Origin: Octopus sinensis
Lineage: Eukaryota
Length of the DNA stretch: 64,000 bases
Direction of reading: 5' to 3'
Assembly (NCBI RefSeq): GCF_006345805.1
Contig: NC_042998.1
Span: 143,716,001 to 143,780,000, forward strand
Shown: piece after piece, positions 1-47,873 of the stretch
How positions within the stretch are numbered: the stretch's first letter is position 1
How the letters are laid out: each line of letters begins with the position of its first letter
Position numbers and translations under genes: made by a program
The notes under the pieces: generated by a model
Told to the model about the DNA's origin: nothing
The model's input: only the letters and a program-made list of their open reading frames with translations
Databases searched by the model: none

Positions 1-270
1 GAGAGAGTCATGATACCCACTGCAAGAATTGACTTGACCGAACGACTATAAATAGTAGCGGTCTCAGTGAAAAGCAGAGAAGGCGTTAATCGTAGTAAGT
101 CATAAGGTGTCGTTTTGGTAGTTTGTCGTAATATCGTTTGTTAGTTCGTGGAGAGTTCGTGGAGAGTTTGTTGGATCGTTACGTTGTCGTTACCCTGCTT
201 CGTTATATATTTTACTGTTACTACACGGTTAGGGTGTAAAAAAGTATCATCATAACAATTGGTGATACAA
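1..270 (+). mobile_element. Probable LTR 3' portion (LTR retrotransposon remnant)
   Basis: TATAAATA at ~47, U5-like GT-rich stretch, ends ...ATAACA followed by ATTGGTG (PBS-like TGG start). Confidence 0.3.
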
Positions 271-2160: not shown

Positions 2161-2299
2161 CGTTCTAAGAGTGCACACGCTCTACCTTTTACTATTTCTC
2201 AGTCTATGTTTCTGTCTCTGTCTGTCTGTTTGTCTGTCTTCTCTCTTTCTCCCTCTCTCTCCCCCTCTTTCTTTCTCTCTCGGTTTCTATCTATCTATT

Positions 2300-2340
<41 letters not shown>

Positions 2341-2570
2341 GTGTATATATACGATCAAAGTAGCTAGTTTTAAAATCTCTAAACGAGATATTAGTAACAA
2401 TACTAGACGGTAACTTTTTCTTGCCACTATACCATGGCTGTTTTGTAAAGAACTATATTACTACATTTTAACCCCAGGAAAACGTCTTTTCCAGCTGGTT
2501 AACGACACACAAACTGTGTCCGGTATATTGTGTGTAAAGGAGCAAATTACTCCCCTCCAGCTTGGCAAGA

Positions 2571-2615
2571 CCAGTAGACCATGGTTTCTGAATTTTTACC
2601 CTTCATCAGTACTGG
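2571..2615 (-). ncRNA. Type I hammerhead ribozyme
   Basis: rc: CCAGTA-CTGATGA-agggtaaaaattca-GAAA-CCATGG-TC-TACTGG; 6-bp stem I, palindromic stem III, GUC site. Confidence 0.85.
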
Positions 2616-3005
2616 ACATTTGCTTGCTAGAGATGGCATTCAATCGTCCCTACTCACAATATATAAACAGAGAGGCACCAGACAGCCGCTAGTCTCGTAA
2701 CGAGCGAAGTAGCTGGTTCTAAAATCTCGATGCCTTACTCAAAATATATCGGGCGCAGGTCGTGTGTCGTTAATCAGCTGGAAAAGACGTTTTCTTGAGG
2801 TTAAAATGTAGTAATATAGTGCTTTACAGAACAGCCATGGTATAGTGACAAAAGAAAAAAGCGTTACCGTCTAGTATTGCTGCAACTCGTTTAGAGATTT
2901 TAGAAGAGCTATTTTGCTCGTTACGAGATCAACGGCTGTTTGCCGCTTTTCTGCTTATATATTGCGAGTAGGGACGATTGAATGCCATCACTAGCAGGCA
3001 GGTGT

Positions 3006-3050
3006 CCTGTGCCGATGAAGGGTAAAGATCCAGAAACCATGGTCTACTGG
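3006..3050 (+). ncRNA. Type I hammerhead ribozyme (U4C variant, paralog of 2571-2615)
   Basis: CCTGTG-CCGATGA-agggtaaagatcca-GAAA-CCATGG-TC-TACTGG. Confidence 0.75.
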
Positions 3051-3351
3051 TTTTGCCAAGTTGGAGGGGAGTGATTCGCTCACTTACAATATATTGGACA
3101 CAGGTAGTGTGTCGTTAACCAGCTGGAAAAGACGTTTTCCTAGGGTTAAAATGTAGTAACATAGTTCTTTACAGAACAGCCATGATATAGTGGCAAGAAA
3201 AAGTTACCGCCTATATATATATATAAAAATATATATATACATATACATATACATATATATACATATATATATATGTATGTATGTATGTATTTATGTACGT
3301 ATGTATGTATGTGTGCGTGCGTACGTGTGTGTGTGTATGCGTATGTGTGTA

Positions 3352-4335: not shown

Positions 4336-4867
<532 letters not shown>

Positions 4868-6353: not shown

Positions 6354-6404
6354 TGAGAAAGAGAGTTATATGCATATGTAAGTATATATATATGTTTATA
6401 TATA

Positions 6405-7663
6405 TTGGGTTGTCCGGTAAGTTCGTGCCGATTTTTAAAGGAAACAAAAAGGCCAATAAATACTTGCCATTACATTTTTAATCAACCAACTATGAACCAT
6501 TTTGTTGCACAGTGTGTTTCCATCTTTCCTTTAACTTGAAAATACCCTCTTCCCAGAACTGAGGTGGTTTCATGGCAAATAATTCATCAAGGTATCTTTT
6601 TACGTCATCCAAGGAATTGAAATTGTTATCATTAAGACTATTCTGCAGAGACCTGAATAAGTGGAAATCCGAAGGAGCAATATCTTGTGAATTTGTAGGG
6701 TAGAGTAACACATCCCAGCCAAGCTGCAGCAATTTTTGTCTGGTTCCCAAAGAAACGTGCGGTCTTGCATTATCATGTTGGAAAACAACACCTTTCCTGT
6801 TGGCCAATTCTGGACGTTTCTCTTGAATTGCTGCTTTTAACTCGTCCAGTTGTGTGCAGTATTTCTCAGAATTAATTGTCTGGTTACTTGGGAGAGGCTC
6901 ATAGTACAGAATTCCTTTCCAATCCCACCAGACACAAAGCAAGACTTTTTTAGGGTGAAGACCCCATTATGGGGTGGCTAAGGGTGGCTCATGTCGCTTA
7001 CTCCCGGATCGCTTTCTGTGAACATTTCCATCTGTGATTTGCTTTAAAAAAGGCGCGTTTTCATTCTGTTTATAAAGCGAATCACAGATGGAAATGCGAT
7101 CAAAAAGGTTCTTCTCACTCAATTCGTGTGGTACCCAAACATCTTAGCGATTTGTGTACCCAAGCTTTACCAGGTGCTCATGAACGACGGATTTTGATAG
7201 GTTGAGGCTTTCTGCCAATTCTCGGGTTGTGCAATGTGGGTTATTCTCAATTAATGACTTGATTTGATCATCATCTGTAGTGGATGGTCTGCGTGATCAT
7301 TCTTTATCAATAAGGCTACAATCACCAGCTCGGAACCTTGCGAACCACTTCCGTACAGTTCTTTCGGACAAAGAAACATTACCGTAAACTGCGCATATTT
7401 CTTTGGTTGCTTGCGAGGCATTTTTTACTTTACTGAAAAAGAAAAGCATCAAGTGCCGAAAATGAACTTCTTATCTTCCATTTTAAAGGGTCACAGAATT
7501 AACACAGGTTATAAGAACATAAACCTTCTTCCATGAAAAGATAGCTTAAACTGTGCTCTATATGGAGGTGTAGTCAAATTCTATTTTATGGACTCAACCA
7601 TGTTCTAAAATAAGTCGAAAGGTAAGGCTACTATAAACTGGCACGAACTTTCCGGCAACCCAA
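6405..7663 (-). mobile_element. Full-length mariner (Tc1/mariner) element, ~1.26 kb
   Basis: Imperfect TIRs TTGGGTTGTCCGGTAAGTTCGTGCC / GGCACGAACTTTCCGGCAACCCAA with TA flanks; inserted in (TA)n. Confidence 0.95.
6490..7481 (-). pseudogene. Mariner D,D34D transposase, inactivated
   Basis: ATG at 7481; WVPHEL, WWDWKGILYYE, HDNARPH, SQDIAPSDFHLF; frameshifts and a deletion near the first catalytic D. Confidence 0.92.
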
Positions 7664-8959: not shown

Positions 8960-10570
8960 GGCCACCGTTTAGCCAATCTTCCGGTCGGAAAAAATGTCGA
9001 GCGGCATATCTTCTGGCTGTTTTTATTCTGAGTTCCAATAATGCCTAGACCAATTTTGACTTTAATCCTTTCAAGGTCGATGAAATAAGTACCAGCTGAG
9101 CACCTGGGTTTCCAGAGATTACTTATTCAAACCCCAAATAATCCTTCACAACACATGGCTAATCAAACAACTGACAAGCAATTCTGTAGCCCATCTTTTA
9201 CACCAACACAAAACAGGCGCATGATAACTCTTTCAATAGGTTAAGGTCAGAAACCAATGGAGCCACTGCCTAGTACTGCATCAAAGCACTTATTATAACT
9301 ATTATCTTTATAAAGCCGGCGATCTGGCAGAATCGTTAGCACGCCGGGCGAAATACTTAGCTACATTTCATCCGTCTTTACGTTCAAATTTCCACCGAGG
9401 TTGATTTGCCTTTTGTACTTTCGGGGTTGATAAAATAAGTACCAGTTGAGTACTGGAGTCGATTTAATCGACTTAGTCCTTTTCTCAAAACTGCTGTCCT
9501 TGCACAAAAATTTAAAGCCGTTGTTATTATTATTATTAGTAGTAATAGTAGTAGTAGTTAAGGCGGTGAGCTGGCAGAAACGTTAGCACGCCGGGCGAAA
9601 TGCGTAGCCGTAAAATTCCGCCGAGGTCGACTTTACCTTTCATCCTTTCGGGGTCGATTAAATAAGTACCAGTTACGCACTTGGGTCGATGTAATCGACT
9701 TAATCCGTGTGTTTGTCCTTGTTTGTCCCCTCTGTGTTTAGCTCCTTGTGGGTAGTAAAGAAATAGGTATTTCGTCTGTCTTTACGTTCTGAGTTCAAAT
9801 TCTGCCGAGGTCGACTTTGCCTTTCATCCTTTCGGGGTCGCTAAATTAAGCACCAATTACGTACTAGGGTCGATGTAATTGACTTGATCCCTTTGTCTGT
9901 CCTTGTTTGTCCCCTCTATGTTTAGTCCCTTGTAGGCAATAAAGAAATAAGAAACGTTAGCACATCGGGCGAAATGCGTAGCCGTATTTCGTTTGTCGTT
10001 AGTTCTGAGTTCAAATTCCGCCGAGGTCGACTTTGCCTTTCATCCTTTCGGGGTCGATAAATTAAGTACCAGTTACACACTGGGGTCGATGTAATCGACT
10101 TAATCCTTTTGTCTGTACTTGTTTGTTCCCTCTATGTTTAGCCTCATGTGGGTAATAAAGAAATAAGAATCGTTAGCAAGCCTGGCGAAATGCTTAGCGG
10201 TATAGTTCAAATTCCACCGAGCTCGACTTTGCCTTTCATCCTTTCGGTGTCGACTAAATAAGTACCAGTTACGCACTGGGGTCGATGTAATCGACTCACC
10301 CCTTCCCTCCAAATTTCAAGCCTTGTGCCTATGGTAAAAAGGTCATTATTATCATTATTAGTTAAAAGGCGACGAGCTGGTAGAAACGTTAGCACGCCGG
10401 ACGAAATGCTTAGGCACATTTCGTCCGTCTTTATGTATCTGAGTTCAAATTACGCCGGGGTCGACTTTACCTTTCATCCTTTCGTGATCGATCAAAAAAG
10501 TACAAGTTGAACACTGAGGTCGATTACATCGACAGGCCCCTTTCCCAAAAATTTCAGGCCATGTGCCTAT
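8960..10570 (+). mobile_element. Cluster/tandem array of SINE family B (~7 copies)
   Basis: Repeated AAGGCGGCGAGCTGGCAGAAACGTTAGCACGCCGGGCGAAAT...GAGTTCAAATTCCGCCGAGGTCGACTTTGCCTTTCATCCTTTCGGGGTCGA...AAGTACCAG. Confidence 0.9.
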
Positions 10571-10923
10571 GATACAGAGAATTATTATTATCATTGCCAT
10601 TTTCTTTTTCTTCCTATAGTTATTTAATATTACGCAACGTAAGGCAGGAACTTCGATTTGACTGTGATAGAGAACGTTTATTTCTCTATAAAGTAGCATT
10701 TATTATATAAATTATGAACATAATAAAAACTAGGTGCTGGTGACGGTAGCAAAGAAGGGGAGAAGCGGAGGAGGAGGAAAAGGAAAAGGGGAAGGAAGAA
10801 ATGGAAGGGGAGGAGAGAAATAAGGAAAGGAAGACTAAACAAAAATTTTGAAAAATCACATGGCAAGCAAATATATCTTCTAAAAGGTGTGTGTTTGTAT
10901 GTATCAGAATATTGCTCAGCATT

Positions 10924-22577: not shown

Positions 22578-24180
22578 ATGTGGACTGGTTTAACTTTTCC
22601 AGGCGTCCCCGTCATCTAAACATCTCCCAGCGAACTCTCGGCCCTTCGATGTCTCCGACACCGTACTGACATCATTATAAAACCGGCTGACAAGAGTGGA
22701 GCCGTGGTGGTGTAACGCGCGGACCTCTACAAGGCCGAAGCTTTCCGCCAACTTCAAGAAACCCCCATCAACTGCCCTCTGCCCTCTGACCCCACGCACA
22801 GCTACCAACAGACTGTGTCCTCCACTATCTATGACCTCATCTCCTCCTCCCGTTTCCCCTCCCCATCGCCTCCAACCTCATTGTCCGCACCCCTCGCATC
22901 CCACCATTTATTTCCTCCCCAAAACCCACAAGCCTAACAACCCCGGGCCTCCCCATCGTCTCCGCCTGAAACTGCCCCACCGAACTCATCTCCAAGTATC
23001 TTGACCGTGTCCTTGCCTCCCTAGTGACTTCCCTCCCCTCTCACATCCATGACACCAACCACGCGCTTCGTTTGTTCAACTCTTTCTCCTTCCCTCCTGG
23101 CTCCTCTAAACTTTTCTTCACCCTCGGCATCGAGAGCCTCTACACGGTGATCCCTCACCACGAGGGGCTGTATGCACACCAACATTTCCTTGACCTTCGA
23201 CCCAACCTCCAACATGACACATCCACACTCGTTCGTCTGGTTGAACTTGTCCTCTCACTCAACTGCTTCTCGCTCGCGGGTGGCCATGGGAACGAGAATG
23301 GGCCCCAACTATGCGAACCTGTTCGTTGGCTACGTTGAGGCTCAAATATTCTCAAGTTTCACTGGTCCCACTCCCGAACTATACGGCCGTTATATTGACG
23401 ACTGTATCGGTGCGACCTCACTCTCAGGCGAACATCTAGATACCTTCCTCTCTTTTGTCAAATCTTTCCATCCTTCCCTCTACTTCTCCTGTACTAGAAA
23501 GGAGACACCTCTGTCTCCTTTCTTGACATTTCGGTCAGCATTCATCACTCCACTCTCACCACCTCCATCCACTACAAACAAACAAACTCACACTCATACC
23601 TCAACTTCTCTTCCTCCCACCCTAAACACACCAAGCTTTTCATCCCCTATTCCCAATTCCTTCGTCTACGCAGGCTCTGTAGTGACGACCATGACTAAGA
23701 CTCAGTCTCAACTCATGGCTTGCCACTTCATCCTACGTGGATATCCCCTCACCACTATCCACACCGGCCGTGCATCTGCTCTCTCCCCCGAACCCGCACC
23801 GCCGTCTCCCACCTCCTATTTCCCCTCACCTACCAACCCACCACCCTACCTCTCCATCGCACCATTCTCCGAGCCTTCCGGCGACTCCAGTCCGACCCCT
23901 CCACTTCGCACATCTTCCCTAACCGACCACTCCCCTCCTTCAAACGAGCCTACAACCTACGAGACCTCTTGGTCCACAGCTTCTTCCCTAATCCAACCTC
24001 CCAACCCTGCTCATTCCCCTGCTCCCGCCCACGCTGCTGCACTTACCTTTACTTCTTCAACACCACCCTCCCCACCGGCACCCATCATCGACCCTATCAC
24101 ATCACCGACTCCTTCACCTGCACTTCTACCAATATCATCTACTGCATCTCCTGCTCTCTCTGCCCTTCTCTATACTTCGT
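22578..24180 (+). mobile_element. Penelope-like element (Neptune-type) RT plus start of GIY-YIG, frameshifted and truncated
   Basis: DIIIKPADK, IYFLPKTHKPNNPG, IESLYTVIPH, VAMGTRMGPNYANLFVG, RYIDD, IPYSQFLRLRRLCS, CSRPRCCT..HITDSFTCTSTNIIYCISCSLCPSLY. Confidence 0.92.
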
Positions 24181-24189
24181 TAACTTGTA

Positions 24190-25940
24190 GGCCAAGAGAC
24201 TTTTTAAATTTCTGACTAAGCTTCATGACTGAAGCATGCTTGGAATCTTCATGCTTCGGTGCAGCATCGCTTGTTGTATTAAGGTACATTTCAAGATCTA
24301 TTATTGCTGATTTGAAAGATTGTTCGAGCTTCCACCTATTTTTCTTGTGAGATAAATCCTATCTACATCTGATTTTGAATAGTGCGTTCGGTACCTTGTA
24401 AAGATTTTACGGATCTTTCCATCTATATTCTGCATGTCAGTGAGACTCCACTTGATGATACCGAAGATATATGTGATTACTGATATGGCCAAAGAATTGA
24501 TCGCATAAATTCTGTTAGCAGCATTTAATTCTGAGTTTGGGACCATTCTTACTCTTCGGTATAGCATCCCTTGCGGATTTTCTCTTTCATTTTAGAGTGC
24601 TGGTTACCATCACTTTCATTGGTTCCCAGATATTTGTATACTTCGGATTGGTCTAGGTTTCGAATAGCTGTGGTAGTATCAAGTTCTATGTTTTCTGCCT
24701 TTATGAACTTCCCTGCCTTGAAAATAGCCTTTACACACTTATCAAGTCCTAATTCCATACCTATATCAGAGCTAAATTCTTTGACAATATTCAGGAGCTC
24801 TTCTAATTATTTGTCGCTTTTGGCAAACAGTTTTAGATCATCCATATAGAGTAGATGATTAATTTTCTGGTCAAAGATTTTATACCCTCTCTTAGCATTA
24901 TTCAGTTACGTGGATAAAGGGAACAGAGTGAGGCAGAATAGTAATGGTGATAATGAGTCACCTTGAAAGTAACCACAGGCGACATTGATGTCTGGTGAGG
25001 TGGTATATTCTTATATATGGTTTAAAATGAGGGTTGTTCTCCACGAATTCATGATTACTTTTAAAAAGTTCACTATTGTTGGAGCTATCTTGTAAATTTC
25101 CAGGGCCTTGGTGATACATGCATGGTGGGGGTCGGGCATTGTCTAAAGCCTTCTTGTAATCTATCCAAGCAGTGCTAAGGTTTCTGCGTTTAGATTTGCA
25201 ATTTTCAATGTTCATTTTATCAATCAGTAATTGGTCCTTACATCCATATGAACTCATTTTACATCTCTTTTGTTCCACTGGGAATAGCTTCCTATTGTCC
25301 GAGGATTCATATGCTCTATTCACGATCATAGATGTTAATAGTTTATATATGGTAGTGAGGCATGTTATGGGTCGGTATTTTGGTGGGTTAGTAGTGTCTT
25401 CTGTTTTTGGTAAGAGATATGTAATCCCTTCCGTAAGCCATTTTGGGGCTTTCGCAGGGTTTGACATGACTTCATTGAGTGCTACGACTAAGTTGTGGTT
25501 TGTGCTCATTAAAGAGTTTAGCCAAAACTGTGTTATCTTATCTATACCTGGTGATTTCCATTTCTTTGACTTGACGCGCGCTGCTTTCACTTCTTCAGTT
25601 GTCATATCCTGTCATTCTTGATATTTGAGGTGGGCATTGGCCTCTCCTATGTCCCTGACCCAATATGCGTTCTGACTAAACTTCTTTGGATTACTTCAAA
25701 TGTTTTTCCAAAAATCTTCAGTTTGCAGCTGGGGAGGAGGTGTTTTCCCAATAAGGTTATTTTTCCGCAGTTCCCTGTACAATTTTTTTATGCTCTCCTT
25801 GAATAGTATGTTTTTTCTATGGAACGCTGAGCGTTTTTTTTTTGTTTTTTTTCTGTATCTTGCCAGTCGTTTGTTTTTTAATTGTAGTTTTTGTTTGAGG
25901 ATTTCAATCTGTATATCCTTTGTTTTCTTGTAAGGGTCAT
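24190..25940 (-). mobile_element. R4/Dong-like non-LTR retrotransposon RT region, degenerate
   Basis: WKSPGIDKI, WLTEGITYLLPK, YRPITCL, GCKDQLLIDK, AWIDYKKA, HLLYMDDLKLFAK, GMELGLDKC, YKYLG. Confidence 0.92.

Positions 25941-28186: not shown

Positions 28187-28220
<34 letters not shown>
27611..28220. repeat. Tandem duplication, ~317-bp unit bounded by (TA)n
   Basis: AAGGTGAGAAAAATTTTTGG at 27611 and 27928; units differ mostly by single-base indels. Confidence 0.9.
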
Positions 28221-28222
<2 letters not shown>

Positions 28223-28830
28223 TGAAGTATATTTGCCACTTAAATGTAACTAACCCTTAGGGGTGGATGTTACTGTAGCTTGTAGTACCAGAAAGACACC
28301 TCCTCCAGCTGGCTATTGACACACTTTCTGTGCCCTATCAGTATTTGCAAAGGGAAGCCATCTTTCCCATCTTCAACCTTTATGATACACACGGACTCGA
28401 GTTTCTAGATATTGACCCGTCATCAGCGCGTGACAATCACCGGTTGTCAATGAAATGTAGGCCTCCCTTTGCAAATATATATCCTTTTTCCAGTGACGAA
28501 AAGTCACTGATATGGAAAATATGTAAACAAGCAAAAATAAATCTCTGAGCGAGGTATGAACAGTAGCTGCACGACATCGTGAAGTATATGATGACGGATC
28601 AATACCAAGAAACTCGAGTCCGTGTGTATCATACAGGTTGATGATGGGAAGGATGGCTTCCCTTTGCAAATACTGATAGGGCACAGAAAGTGTGTCAATA
28701 GCCAGCTGGAGGAGGTGTCCTCCTGGGGCTACAAGCTATAGCAACATCCAACATTAAGGGTTAGCCACATTTAAGTGGCAAATATACTTCATGATGTCGT
28801 GCAGCTACTGTTTATACCTCGCTCAGAGAT
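28219..28830. mobile_element. Hammerhead-containing retrozyme/pLTR-like insertion, monomer 357 nt, head-to-head
   Basis: CGTGAAGTATA at 28221 and 28578 delimits one minus-strand unit; 28589-28830 is an inverted plus-strand copy starting inside the HHR core (TGATGA...GAAACTCGAGTC). Confidence 0.82.
28388..28432 (-). ncRNA. Type I hammerhead ribozyme
   Basis: rc: CACGCG-CTGATGA-cgggtcaatatcta-GAAA-CTCGAG-TC-CGTGTG; 6-bp stem I, palindromic stem III, GUC site. Confidence 0.85.
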
Positions 28831-38514: not shown

Positions 38515-38923
38515 GGAAAGTATGTTTCATAGTGCTCGCTTGATTATTATCTGTTGCTGTAACAATGTACTCGGCACCTATTGGTGCTTTGATGACAGCG
38601 ACGATGACAAGGAGAAACACTTTTCGAAAACAAAGAATCCGTACTTTAGTTGAAAACGAATGAACGGTACTGAGTTCATCTCTTTTTCTCAGAATCACCA
38701 GAAGCGAACAAATGCTGCAAGGCAAATTTTCCGACGCTCTCATGGTTCTGTTAACTCACCGCAATATCCATTTGTATTAAATGCTGTCATCATTTGACAC
38801 TAAATATATGAGATATTTAGAAATAATAATGTTTATATATCTAGGAGAATGTTTATATATAGGAGAATGTTTATATATCTAGGAGAAAGAGTCCAATTAG
38901 ATCACAGATGCCTGCCCCATCAT

Positions 38924-40111
38924 ATGGGTTCATATGATGGGGCAGGCATCTGTGATCTAATTGGACTCTTTCTCCTAGATACCTTCGGTAAAACATTCCC
39001 TAACGTACATTTCGCCATCTACAAAGATGATGCCCTCGCCTTAACAGCTAATACAAATGGACCAGCACAAGATCGTTTTAGGAAGGATATTATCCAGTTA
39101 ATGAAACACTTCGGACTTAGTATAACTATAGACACTAACCTGACGGTTGTCAATTTCTTAGACGTTTCCTTAGATCTTAATAGTAATATTTATAAGCCTT
39201 ATAGGAAGCCCAATGATAGACTAAGTTATATTAATGTAGGTTCATGCCATCCCCCTATAGTATTCAAAAATTTAGTTAAAAATATTAGTAAGAGGATTTC
39301 TAGCCTCTCATCTAATGAGGACATCTTCAATAGCGTTGCCCCAGTTTATAATAAAGCTTTAAAAGATAGTGGTTTTAGCGAAAAAATAAAATATACACCT
39401 ATCACCAGCCCAACAGTAAGGAAAAGGAATAATAGAAATAGGAAGGTCATCTTGTTTACGCCCCCTTACTCACCCGAGGTGGCCTTCAATATAGGTAAAT
39501 ATTTCCTAGCACTGATAGATAGACATTTTCCAGTTAACCATGCTTATAGGAAACTCTTCAATAGACACAATTTAAAAATTAGTTTTAGTTCAACTACCAA
39601 TTTTAAAAACATAATCAATCATAACATACAAAGAACACAAGAAGAAAACAGCTGTTCATGCAGGAATAAAGAATTGTGCCCGCTAAATGGAGCTTGCATG
39701 TCCAAGACCATCATATATGAAGCTACCGTAAACTCTATAACCACTAAAGACACCGTTTCGACGAAGAAATACGTGGGCCTGACAGAGGGTAATTTCAAGG
39801 CCAGGTTCAATAACCACACTTTGAGCTTTAGGCACTGGAACAAAAGAAAAGCGACACAATTATCCAATCATATTTGGTCTTTAAGAGATAAAGGTGTCGA
39901 TTATAACATACAATGGAAGATTTTGGCCAGATGTAAGCCCTATACTAACGGCAGCGGAAGGTGCGGTTTATGCGACATGGAGAGATGGCTTATCTGGAAA
40001 AGCAGCTTAGACCCTACCACATGTCTAAATAGAAGGACAGAGCTTTTCGGATCATGCCCACATGTGACTAAATTTCTGTTACGTTTTTGGTCCCCTAAAG
40101 AAAACGGATAG
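38924..40111 (+). CDS. PLE reverse transcriptase (motifs B-E, thumb) plus GIY-YIG endonuclease, N-truncated
   Basis: MGSYDGAGICDLIG, YKDD, VNFLDVSLDL, YKPYRKPND, SCHPP, CSCRNKELCPLNGAC, IIYEA..YVGLTEGNFKARFNNH, CGLCDME, LNRRTEL..CPH. Confidence 0.9.
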   Translation: MGSYDGAGICDLIGLFLLDTFGKTFPNVHFAIYKDDALALTANTNGPAQDRFRKDIIQLMKHFGLSITIDTNLTVVNFLDVSLDLNSNIYKPYRKPNDRLSYINVGSCHPPIVFKNLVKNISKRISSLSSNEDIFNSVAPVYNKALKDSGFSEKIKYTPITSPTVRKRNNRNRKVILFTPPYSPEVAFNIGKYFLALIDRHFPVNHAYRKLFNRHNLKISFSSTTNFKNIINHNIQRTQEENSCSCRNKELCPLNGACMSKTIIYEATVNSITTKDTVSTKKYVGLTEGNFKARFNNHTLSFRHWNKRKATQLSNHIWSLRDKGVDYNIQWKILARCKPYTNGSGRCGLCDMERWLIWKSSLDPTTCLNRRTELFGSCPHVTKFLLRFWSPKENG

Positions 40112-40318
40112 AACATGCTTTCTGTGTTATGTCCCAAGAAGATTTTATATATTTTTATATATTTTTATATATTTTTATGTATTTTTATATAATTTTTATG
40201 ACGAAAAATGCGAGCGATGTATAAGTACGCAGGCAAAGCAGAGTTATAACAGAGTAATTTCCCTTCTTTTTTAACGGTATTTTTTCATAATATTTTTTCA
40301 TAACGTTTTCAAATAGCC

Positions 40319-40381
40319 AGATAACCGAAGAGATGGTGTTGTGGATTTCCACTTCGGCATCTGAAACTCAGAGTTTTATCT
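40319..40381 (+). ncRNA. Type I hammerhead ribozyme in PLE 3' UTR/pLTR
   Basis: AGATAA-CCGAAGA-GATG...CATC-T-GAAA-CTCAGAG-TT-TTATCT. Confidence 0.75.
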
Positions 40382-40410
40382 TGACTACCGAGTAATGTAA
40401 CATATTGTAT

Positions 40411-45318: not shown

Positions 45319-45369
45319 AGCTTCTACAGGACTAGTACTGTTTCATTCAGAGAAAATCTTCAGGAAGCT
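45319..45369 (-). ncRNA. Type I hammerhead ribozyme
   Basis: rc: AGCTTC-CTGAAGA-ttttctctgaat-GAAA-CAGTACTAGTCCTG-TA-GAAGCT. Confidence 0.8.
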
Positions 45370-47822: not shown

Positions 47823-47873
47823 AGCTTCCTGAAGATTTCTCTTGAATGAAACAGTACTAGTCCTGTAGAAGCT
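47823..47873 (+). ncRNA. Type I hammerhead ribozyme
   Basis: AGCTTC-CTGAAGA-tTTCtcttGAAt-GAAA-CAG(tACTAGTc)CTG-TA-GAAGCT; 6-bp stem I, GUA site, palindromic loop III. Confidence 0.82.

Follow-up and report, generated by a model that had tools for sequence, protein, structure and literature searches.

The element at positions 2351-3213 of the window, i.e. of the whole 64,000-nt stretch of the Octopus sinensis genome analysed here, is with good probability an old, mutated insertion of a ~350-nt hammerhead ribozyme (HHR) repeat that has no ORF and ends in the manner of Penelope-like elements (PLEs). It was likely copied in trans by the reverse transcriptase (RT)/GIY-YIG protein of an autonomous PLE, and would thus be a non-LTR retrozyme.

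The locus consists of two arms arranged head-to-head (Table 1), which are 87% identical over 325 columns and differ by 30 transitions and 7 transversions in 320 aligned positions. On the plus arm, 2734-2857 recurs at 3079-3202 with a spacing of 345 (85% over 140 columns), and on the minus arm 2700-2728 recurs at 2351-2379 with a spacing of 349, over ~30 nt only. Both periods reported in the first-pass annotation for a ~347-nt unit were therefore recovered. Of the description of this unit as tandem and inverted, the second term holds in full and the first only to the extent of 1.08 units on the minus arm and 1.39 on the plus arm; the true ends are 2351 and 3213, and not 2358 and 3210 as first drawn. 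Elsewhere in the family, consecutive HHRs are separated by 344-355 nt, and all these periods lie in the 150-450 bp range of retrozymes. As had been noted, the unit includes no ORF, the longest ATG-started frame at the locus being 39 aa and the longest stop-to-stop frame 92 aa. Given that the flanks are TA repeats, a target duplication is unreadable at this locus.

Table 1. Features of the hammerhead repeat locus and its flanks (window coordinates).
Feature	Position	Strand	Remarks
Left flank, (TA)n, likely target site	2288-2351	.	
Inverted arm, 378 nt = 1.08 units	2351-2728	-	5'-truncated at unit position -150; long 3' end, +222 from HHR cut
53-nt 'tail', on minus arm only	2351-2403	-	Plus-arm inverted match stops at 2404
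Clan-wide hairpin with internal loop, ~+75 to +110 after cut	2468-2502	-	
Type I HHR	2565-2623	-	Core 2609-2603, U4; perfect 6-bp stem I; stem II with two G-U; palindromic loop III
Predicted cut, minus-arm HHR	between 2577 and 2576	-	
Head-to-head junction, ~4 nt outside both arms	2729-2732	.	
Direct arm, ~480 nt = 1.39 units	2733-3213	+	Short 3' end, +169 from HHR cut
Clan hairpin, first and more decayed plus-arm copy	2770-2804	+	
Type I HHR	2998-3056	+	Core 3012-3018, C4; stem I with U-U mismatch and G-U; stem II with one G-U
Predicted cut, plus-arm HHR	after 3044	+	
Re-entry of 2734-2873, period 345 = partial tandem/pseudo-LTR	3079-3213	+	
Clan hairpin, second plus-arm copy	3115-3149	+	
Right flank, (TA)n-type repeat, likely target site	3212-3294	.	

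A single type I HHR core was found on each arm, at 3012-3044 (+) and 2609-2577 (-), in agreement with the earlier count of one HHR per unit. The HHR pattern occurs three times in the window but in none of 100 shuffled sequences; an Rfam search of the window at the gathering threshold returned no match. The HHR fold of the plus arm is not adopted in single-sequence prediction, the single-sequence folds of both HHRs are no better than those of shuffles, and the two monomers fold at z +0.26 and -2.0. For a transcript across the locus, 299 inter-arm pairs are predicted, forming a ~300-bp hairpin that takes up the ribozyme. Two consecutive complete HHRs, the criterion for an 'active' retrozyme in Li, Clavereau & Pollet (2026, bioRxiv 10.64898/2026.07.22.740005), are absent from the locus, and with one HHR per strand the release of a monomer by double cleavage is impossible. 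The locus is a decayed copy without sign of host function, and it is most likely dead, as judged by its one HHR per strand, poor monomer folds and inter-arm hairpin.

The decay of the ribozyme was counted in 38 in-register HHRs from 35 loci. The core is intact in 15 of these, and core position 4 is C in 30 (the U4C variant). The position-4 contexts CCG (20), CTG (6) and CCA (6) form a symmetric CpG-loss pattern, and the 'canonical' U4 of the minus arm is likely a mutation from C4 by CpG change. In stem II, 13 pair-breaking G-to-A changes were counted against 12 wobble-making C-to-T changes (114 sites each). Since pair-breaking is as frequent as wobble-making, the G-U pairs of stem II represent neutral decay from GGGT/ACCC, and stem II wobble was rejected as a sign of selection. 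The view that stem II had kept pairing between the copies was thus overturned: the pairs quoted for it (GGGT/ATTC and GGGT/ATCC) hold only as G-U wobbles, two on the minus arm and one on the plus arm, and derive by C-to-T decay from the commoner form. These substitution counts show that copies within the family of the window locus decay neutrally. U4C is reported to lower HHR activity in vitro, yet to support a viroid in vivo (PMC3088659). A young autonomous PLE of this octopus likewise has the C4 core, and recurrence of the variant among repeats of this genome is suggested. At loci L081, L085, L186 and L211, other HHR-like motifs, unrelated to these, also have C at core position 4. Two near-identical HHR-like motifs of another family lie in the window at 45325-45363 (-) and 47829-47867 (+), pointing outward ~2.5 kb apart.

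Searching the 2.72-Gb genome with the unit gave 559 candidate places, 40 of which were scored, with long matches of 75-84% identity, and a 117-nt 3' query gave 939, of which 40 were likewise scored. After removal of duplicate places (2/37 and 12/30), 53 loci including that of the window were analysed, 35 of them from a set biased to long copies and 18 chosen by their 3' end. An arm longer than one unit is present at 32 of the 53 (26/35 in the length-biased set and 6/18 in the 3'-chosen set). At least two HHRs on one strand were found at 3/35 loci, namely three cut sites at L021, which also has the longest arm (2.3 units), and two each at L005 and L029, with cores that are partly decayed. The family belongs to a larger clan, for which a 27-letter hairpin pattern 3' of the HHR had 2,836 exact matches and its reversed control none; the clan is made up of several sister subfamilies, alike in layout and with periods of ~350. 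A common extension sought in the flanks of the first 30 loci was not found, only scattered pairs being shared. No description of this HHR family was found in the literature covered; Repbase, Dfam, subscription journals, the supplements of both retrozyme papers or the work of Lunse et al. on PLE hammerhead variants may already include it.

The young sister locus L178:1051-1670 (C1 near 95.92 Mb) includes two intact U4 HHRs 353 nt apart and an inverted arm, and its monomer folds well as a circle, at z -4.65. In contigs of runs guessed to be RNA, which carry neither ends nor strand, summed depths for L178 reach hundreds to thousands, and a 134-158-nt contig with 15-16 differences covers about the same place in three studies. 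The expression of L178 is a lead only. For the window copy, contigs of such runs, which hold no ends, strand or circularity, have mostly low depth except at the shared hairpin (80% likeness). A sister-subfamily insertion is also present in the window at 28213-28830, with head-to-head arms, TA flanks and the same hairpin with compensatory changes; its HHRs are an intact U4 form at 28426-28394 (-) and a decayed one near 28590-28630 (+).

The PLE character of the family is seen in the ends of its insertions, here given as positions in the unit counted from the predicted HHR cut, for 77 arms of at least 75 nt at the 53 loci. While the 5' ends are variable, 27 of the 3' ends fall at +150..178 and 24 at +204..228, with 26 elsewhere, so that the two preferred ends are 53 nt apart. 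A simple repeat lies within 40 nt 3' of the end at 29/51 preferred ends versus 6/26 others. The head-to-head arrangement occurs at 20/53 loci; wherever both arms reach preferred ends, one is long and the other short (9/9), and at the remaining 11 at least one arm ends elsewhere. The window locus, with +169 on the plus arm and +222 on the minus arm, has one end of each type. A cluster of 5' ends just after the upstream cut was set aside, as these copies had been selected for full-length matches.

PLEs have been described as having a 5'-truncated inverted copy next to them and, at one end, a tail of 30-40 bp (PMC8557442, PMC3846280). In the anole PLE, two internal RT start sites located 3' of the HHR delimit the tail, and AT-rich targets are cut on both strands (PMC11167929). 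The hallmarks of 5' truncation, partial tandem and adjacent inverted copy are all present in the octopus family. The inverted arm and its unequal ends, whose origin the first-pass annotation had not recognised, are marks of PLE integration. An internal control agrees, in that the young autonomous PLE of the same genome has the same two-end, one-tail pattern: its 3' ends lie at ~+38 or +105, in (TA)n, and one tail is found in 5/5 inverted pairs with both ends readable. The one-sided tail is ~65-69 nt in this PLE and 53 nt in the family, as compared with 30-40 nt published for PLEs (PMC8557442, PMC3846280).

To examine the RNA fold, an alignment was built from the window's sister copy and 27 of the 33 copies with core and hairpin, six truncated, chimeric or near-duplicate rows having been dropped. 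With RNAalifold, stems I and II, the distal extension of stem I and, downstream, five hairpins were recovered. In this 50-pair structure, 90.9% of cells pair versus 33-51% in slid controls, and 30 of the 50 pairs are changed on both sides, figures to be read in view of the few subfamily splits, the choice of copies by core and motif, and the drawing of the structure from the same alignment. Pairs that switch from one subfamily to another number five out of six in stem I and four out of five in its distal extension, and the loop III palindrome does so as well. These paired changes, few as independent events, show within the limits of such an alignment an HHR and hairpin fold that was kept in ORF-less source elements. 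The clan hairpin may be inferred to be a candidate protein-recognition element. Canonical animal type I and minimal PLE forms of the HHR have both been described, and the helix sizes of the family are closer to the canonical form than to the minimal one (PMC4209133).

The RT and GIY-YIG ORF that defines an autonomous EN+ PLE is absent from the family copies examined. Upstream of the HHR, copies enter the previous unit at 344-355 nt, and not an endonuclease domain. Genomic copies always attached to a PLE ORF had been named in the first-pass annotation as evidence against its reading; a tblastn search with three PLE proteins of this genome found no match within ~1.5 kb of any of the 53 family loci, and no PLE protein match was found beside 30 clan-motif loci. 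Given the PLE end signature and no PLE ORF adjoining any copy examined, the family is placed among the non-LTR retrozymes, as a non-autonomous passenger of PLEs. The name retrozyme stands for the family, with its unit, covarying type I HHR, lack of a PLE ORF and multi-HHR loci; the single HHR per strand at the locus itself speaks against an active copy there, and not against its membership of the family.

A shared HHR, hairpin or pseudo-LTR (pLTR) was not found in 20, 25, 25 and 30 sampled PLE or GIY-YIG loci and 7 longer stretches, a sample that misses most PLE families; clan copies do occur at L075, L118 and L208, but seem to have been inserted there separately. The families sampled for a shared pLTR, likewise without result, were the young PLE at window 38804, GIY-YIG loci, and PLEs which we take to belong to Neptune-like and Poseidon-like clades. 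The young PLE is represented in the window by a 5'-truncated copy at 38804-40410, with an HHR at 40325-40375 that has a C4 core and a long stem II. This autonomous element is abundant, with 21,702 candidate places, the best 150 of which are 97-100% identical at the aa level; full-length copies with 717-codon frames are found in L113-L115, the unit being 2,578 bp in L113, and a Pfam search of the 717-aa frame gave no match. A frameshifted PLE RT fragment with a Cys-rich linker, presumably Neptune-like, lies at window 22600-24190 and has 9,693 candidate places. Penelope expansions in octopus are mentioned in general terms in PMC8967140; general background is given in PMC6765202.

A route by which such insertions could arise can be drawn. 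A PLE protein acting in trans would bind the array of hairpins that separates the HHR cut from the 3' ends and would nick both strands of a TA-rich target. Reverse transcription would then begin within the RNA, at +169 for one strand and at +222 for the other, and head-to-head joining of the resulting 5'-truncated cDNAs would follow. The template was longer than one unit, and may be a monomer circle formed via HHR cleavage, for which the weak palindromic stem III implies a dimer mode, and host ligation. The earlier interpretation of the re-entry as cDNA of a circular or multimeric template is retained in part: the re-entry is an ordinary PLE partial tandem, which an uncleaved linear multimer fits equally well and which does not prove a circle. 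Since ligation restores the exact genomic sequence, a read across the junction of GGUC and UACUGG cannot show a circle either.

It is the template step alone that separates this reading from one in which the repeats are SINE-like mini-PLEs copied from uncleaved linear partial-tandem transcripts, with no circle stage and an HHR that acts late or weakly, a serious contender to which somewhat less than an even chance is assigned. In vitro, the anole PLE uses uncleaved RNA and its insertion stays normal when the HHR is mutated, no RNA-seq read began or ended at the cut of that element (PMC11167929), and 8/9 Xenopus retrozyme dimers did not cleave (bioRxiv 10.64898/2026.07.22.740005). The U4C core points in the same direction, as do arms that run through upstream cut sites, up to the 2.3 units of L021, which uncleaved RNA explains. 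Segments within a locus proved more alike than segments of different loci at 5/12 loci, too few to show a single-molecule template; at the window locus the values are 0.078 within and 0.138 between. However, compensatory changes between subfamilies that have no ORF preserve stem I with its distal extension as well as the palindrome of loop III, which indicates that the ribozyme fold was selected without an ORF, and circles are formed in coral, mussel and axolotl by repeats of this size and HHR type (PMC7229834). The conserved ribozyme and these circles fit a circular template, which is favoured over the uncleaved linear multimer with the balance close to level.

Two further explanations were considered. 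The arms might be 5'-truncated pLTR stumps left by an autonomous PLE, with its ORF-bearing copies outside the sample, which would agree with the PLE nature of all insertion features, with the scoring of only 40/559 and 40/939 candidate places, and with the homology of retrozymes to pLTRs in Xenopus (bioRxiv 10.64898/2026.07.22.740005). Re-entry of the copies into the previous unit largely refutes this reading, and the 32 loci exceeding one unit, the three cut sites spanned at L021 and the lack of any PLE protein match in the family and clan-motif loci also stand against it; it is considered improbable. More improbable still, and very hard to sustain, is a DNA-level element, whether a MITE or foldback with TIRs or a satellite that unequal exchange has spread, in which the HHR would be a bystander. 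A long inverted repeat set in TA repeats, such as this locus, is what it would predict, but 33/53 loci have no adjoining inverted arm, the inner junctions differ at every locus while the outer ends are fixed and unequal, the copies are dispersed singly over many contigs, 3' ends are fixed with variable 5' truncation, and covariation is at the RNA level.

The preferred reading, a PLE-mobilised retrozyme, places the family close to the non-LTR retrozymes of Cervera & de la Pena (2020, PMC7229834), which are non-coding units of 150-450 bp (350-390 in mussel and 330/350 in axolotl) and for which PLEs were proposed as mobiliser. Both have a type I HHR in which stem I is of 6 bp, stem II of 4 bp and stem III weak and palindromic. 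Unlike the retrozymes of that paper, as there described, the octopus copies are mostly dispersed, of 0.5-1.5 units and at most 2.3, with an inverted arm and a tail; their HHR combines the U4C core with one additional base on either side of stem II, and they are known from the genome sequence. Animal retrozymes have been described as non-autonomous PLE derivatives with monomers spread across chromosomes by Li, Clavereau & Pollet (2026, bioRxiv 10.64898/2026.07.22.740005), who argue from co-occurrence and pLTR homology in Xenopus, whereas the case made here is one of insertion anatomy, no homologous pLTR having been found. With EN+ PLEs (PMC8557442, PMC3846280, PMC11167929, PMC4209133) the family shares the partial tandem, the inverted 5'-truncated copy, the one-sided tail, AT-rich or microsatellite targets and an HHR upstream of the RT start sites; it differs in having no RT-EN ORF, a unit of 350 nt as compared with 2.5-4 kb, and HHR helices of canonical size rather than the minimal form. 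Non-autonomous elements of Chlamys such as MRC1 are likewise ORF-less PLE passengers with pLTRs and head-to-tail copies, but these share 3' sequence with known autonomous families and, as far as reported in PMC8557442, Chlamys is mostly without canonical HHRs, unlike this family.

The enzyme that spreads animal retrozymes has so far been argued from shared ribozymes, co-occurrence and pLTR homology, and the status of these repeats as non-autonomous PLE derivatives has already been proposed in print (bioRxiv 10.64898/2026.07.22.740005, PMC7229834). The present analysis adds an ORF-less unit whose tails are asymmetric, a candidate recognition element that covaries, and a U4C core that recurs. 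An ORF-less HHR unit with the PLE-specific one-sided tail and inverted arm gives a mechanical tie to PLE integration, and a small covarying RNA of this type is a test object for the choice of template and start site by PLEs and for the need for HHR cleavage and circles. A wider picture, speculative and on present evidence rather unlikely, is that of a clan, thousands strong, of ~350-nt ORF-less RNA circles, in which a covarying hairpin array in the 5' half recruits the PLE RT and fixes the two start sites, young members are highly expressed, and the U4C core is working and selected. If true, PLEs would have in the hairpin array a natural minimal cis-element for target-primed insertion, and the tail asymmetry would be a direct genomic proof that retrozymes ride PLE enzymes.

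Other repeats were observed in the window. A 209-bp tandem duplicate at 4411-4866, 98-100% identical and lying between microsatellites, may be an assembly artefact. A decayed transposase fragment, which we take to be mariner-like, occupies 6400-7660 on the minus strand (ORF 6490-6966), and six or seven SINE-like repeats with ~200 nt spacing are clustered at 9030-10580.
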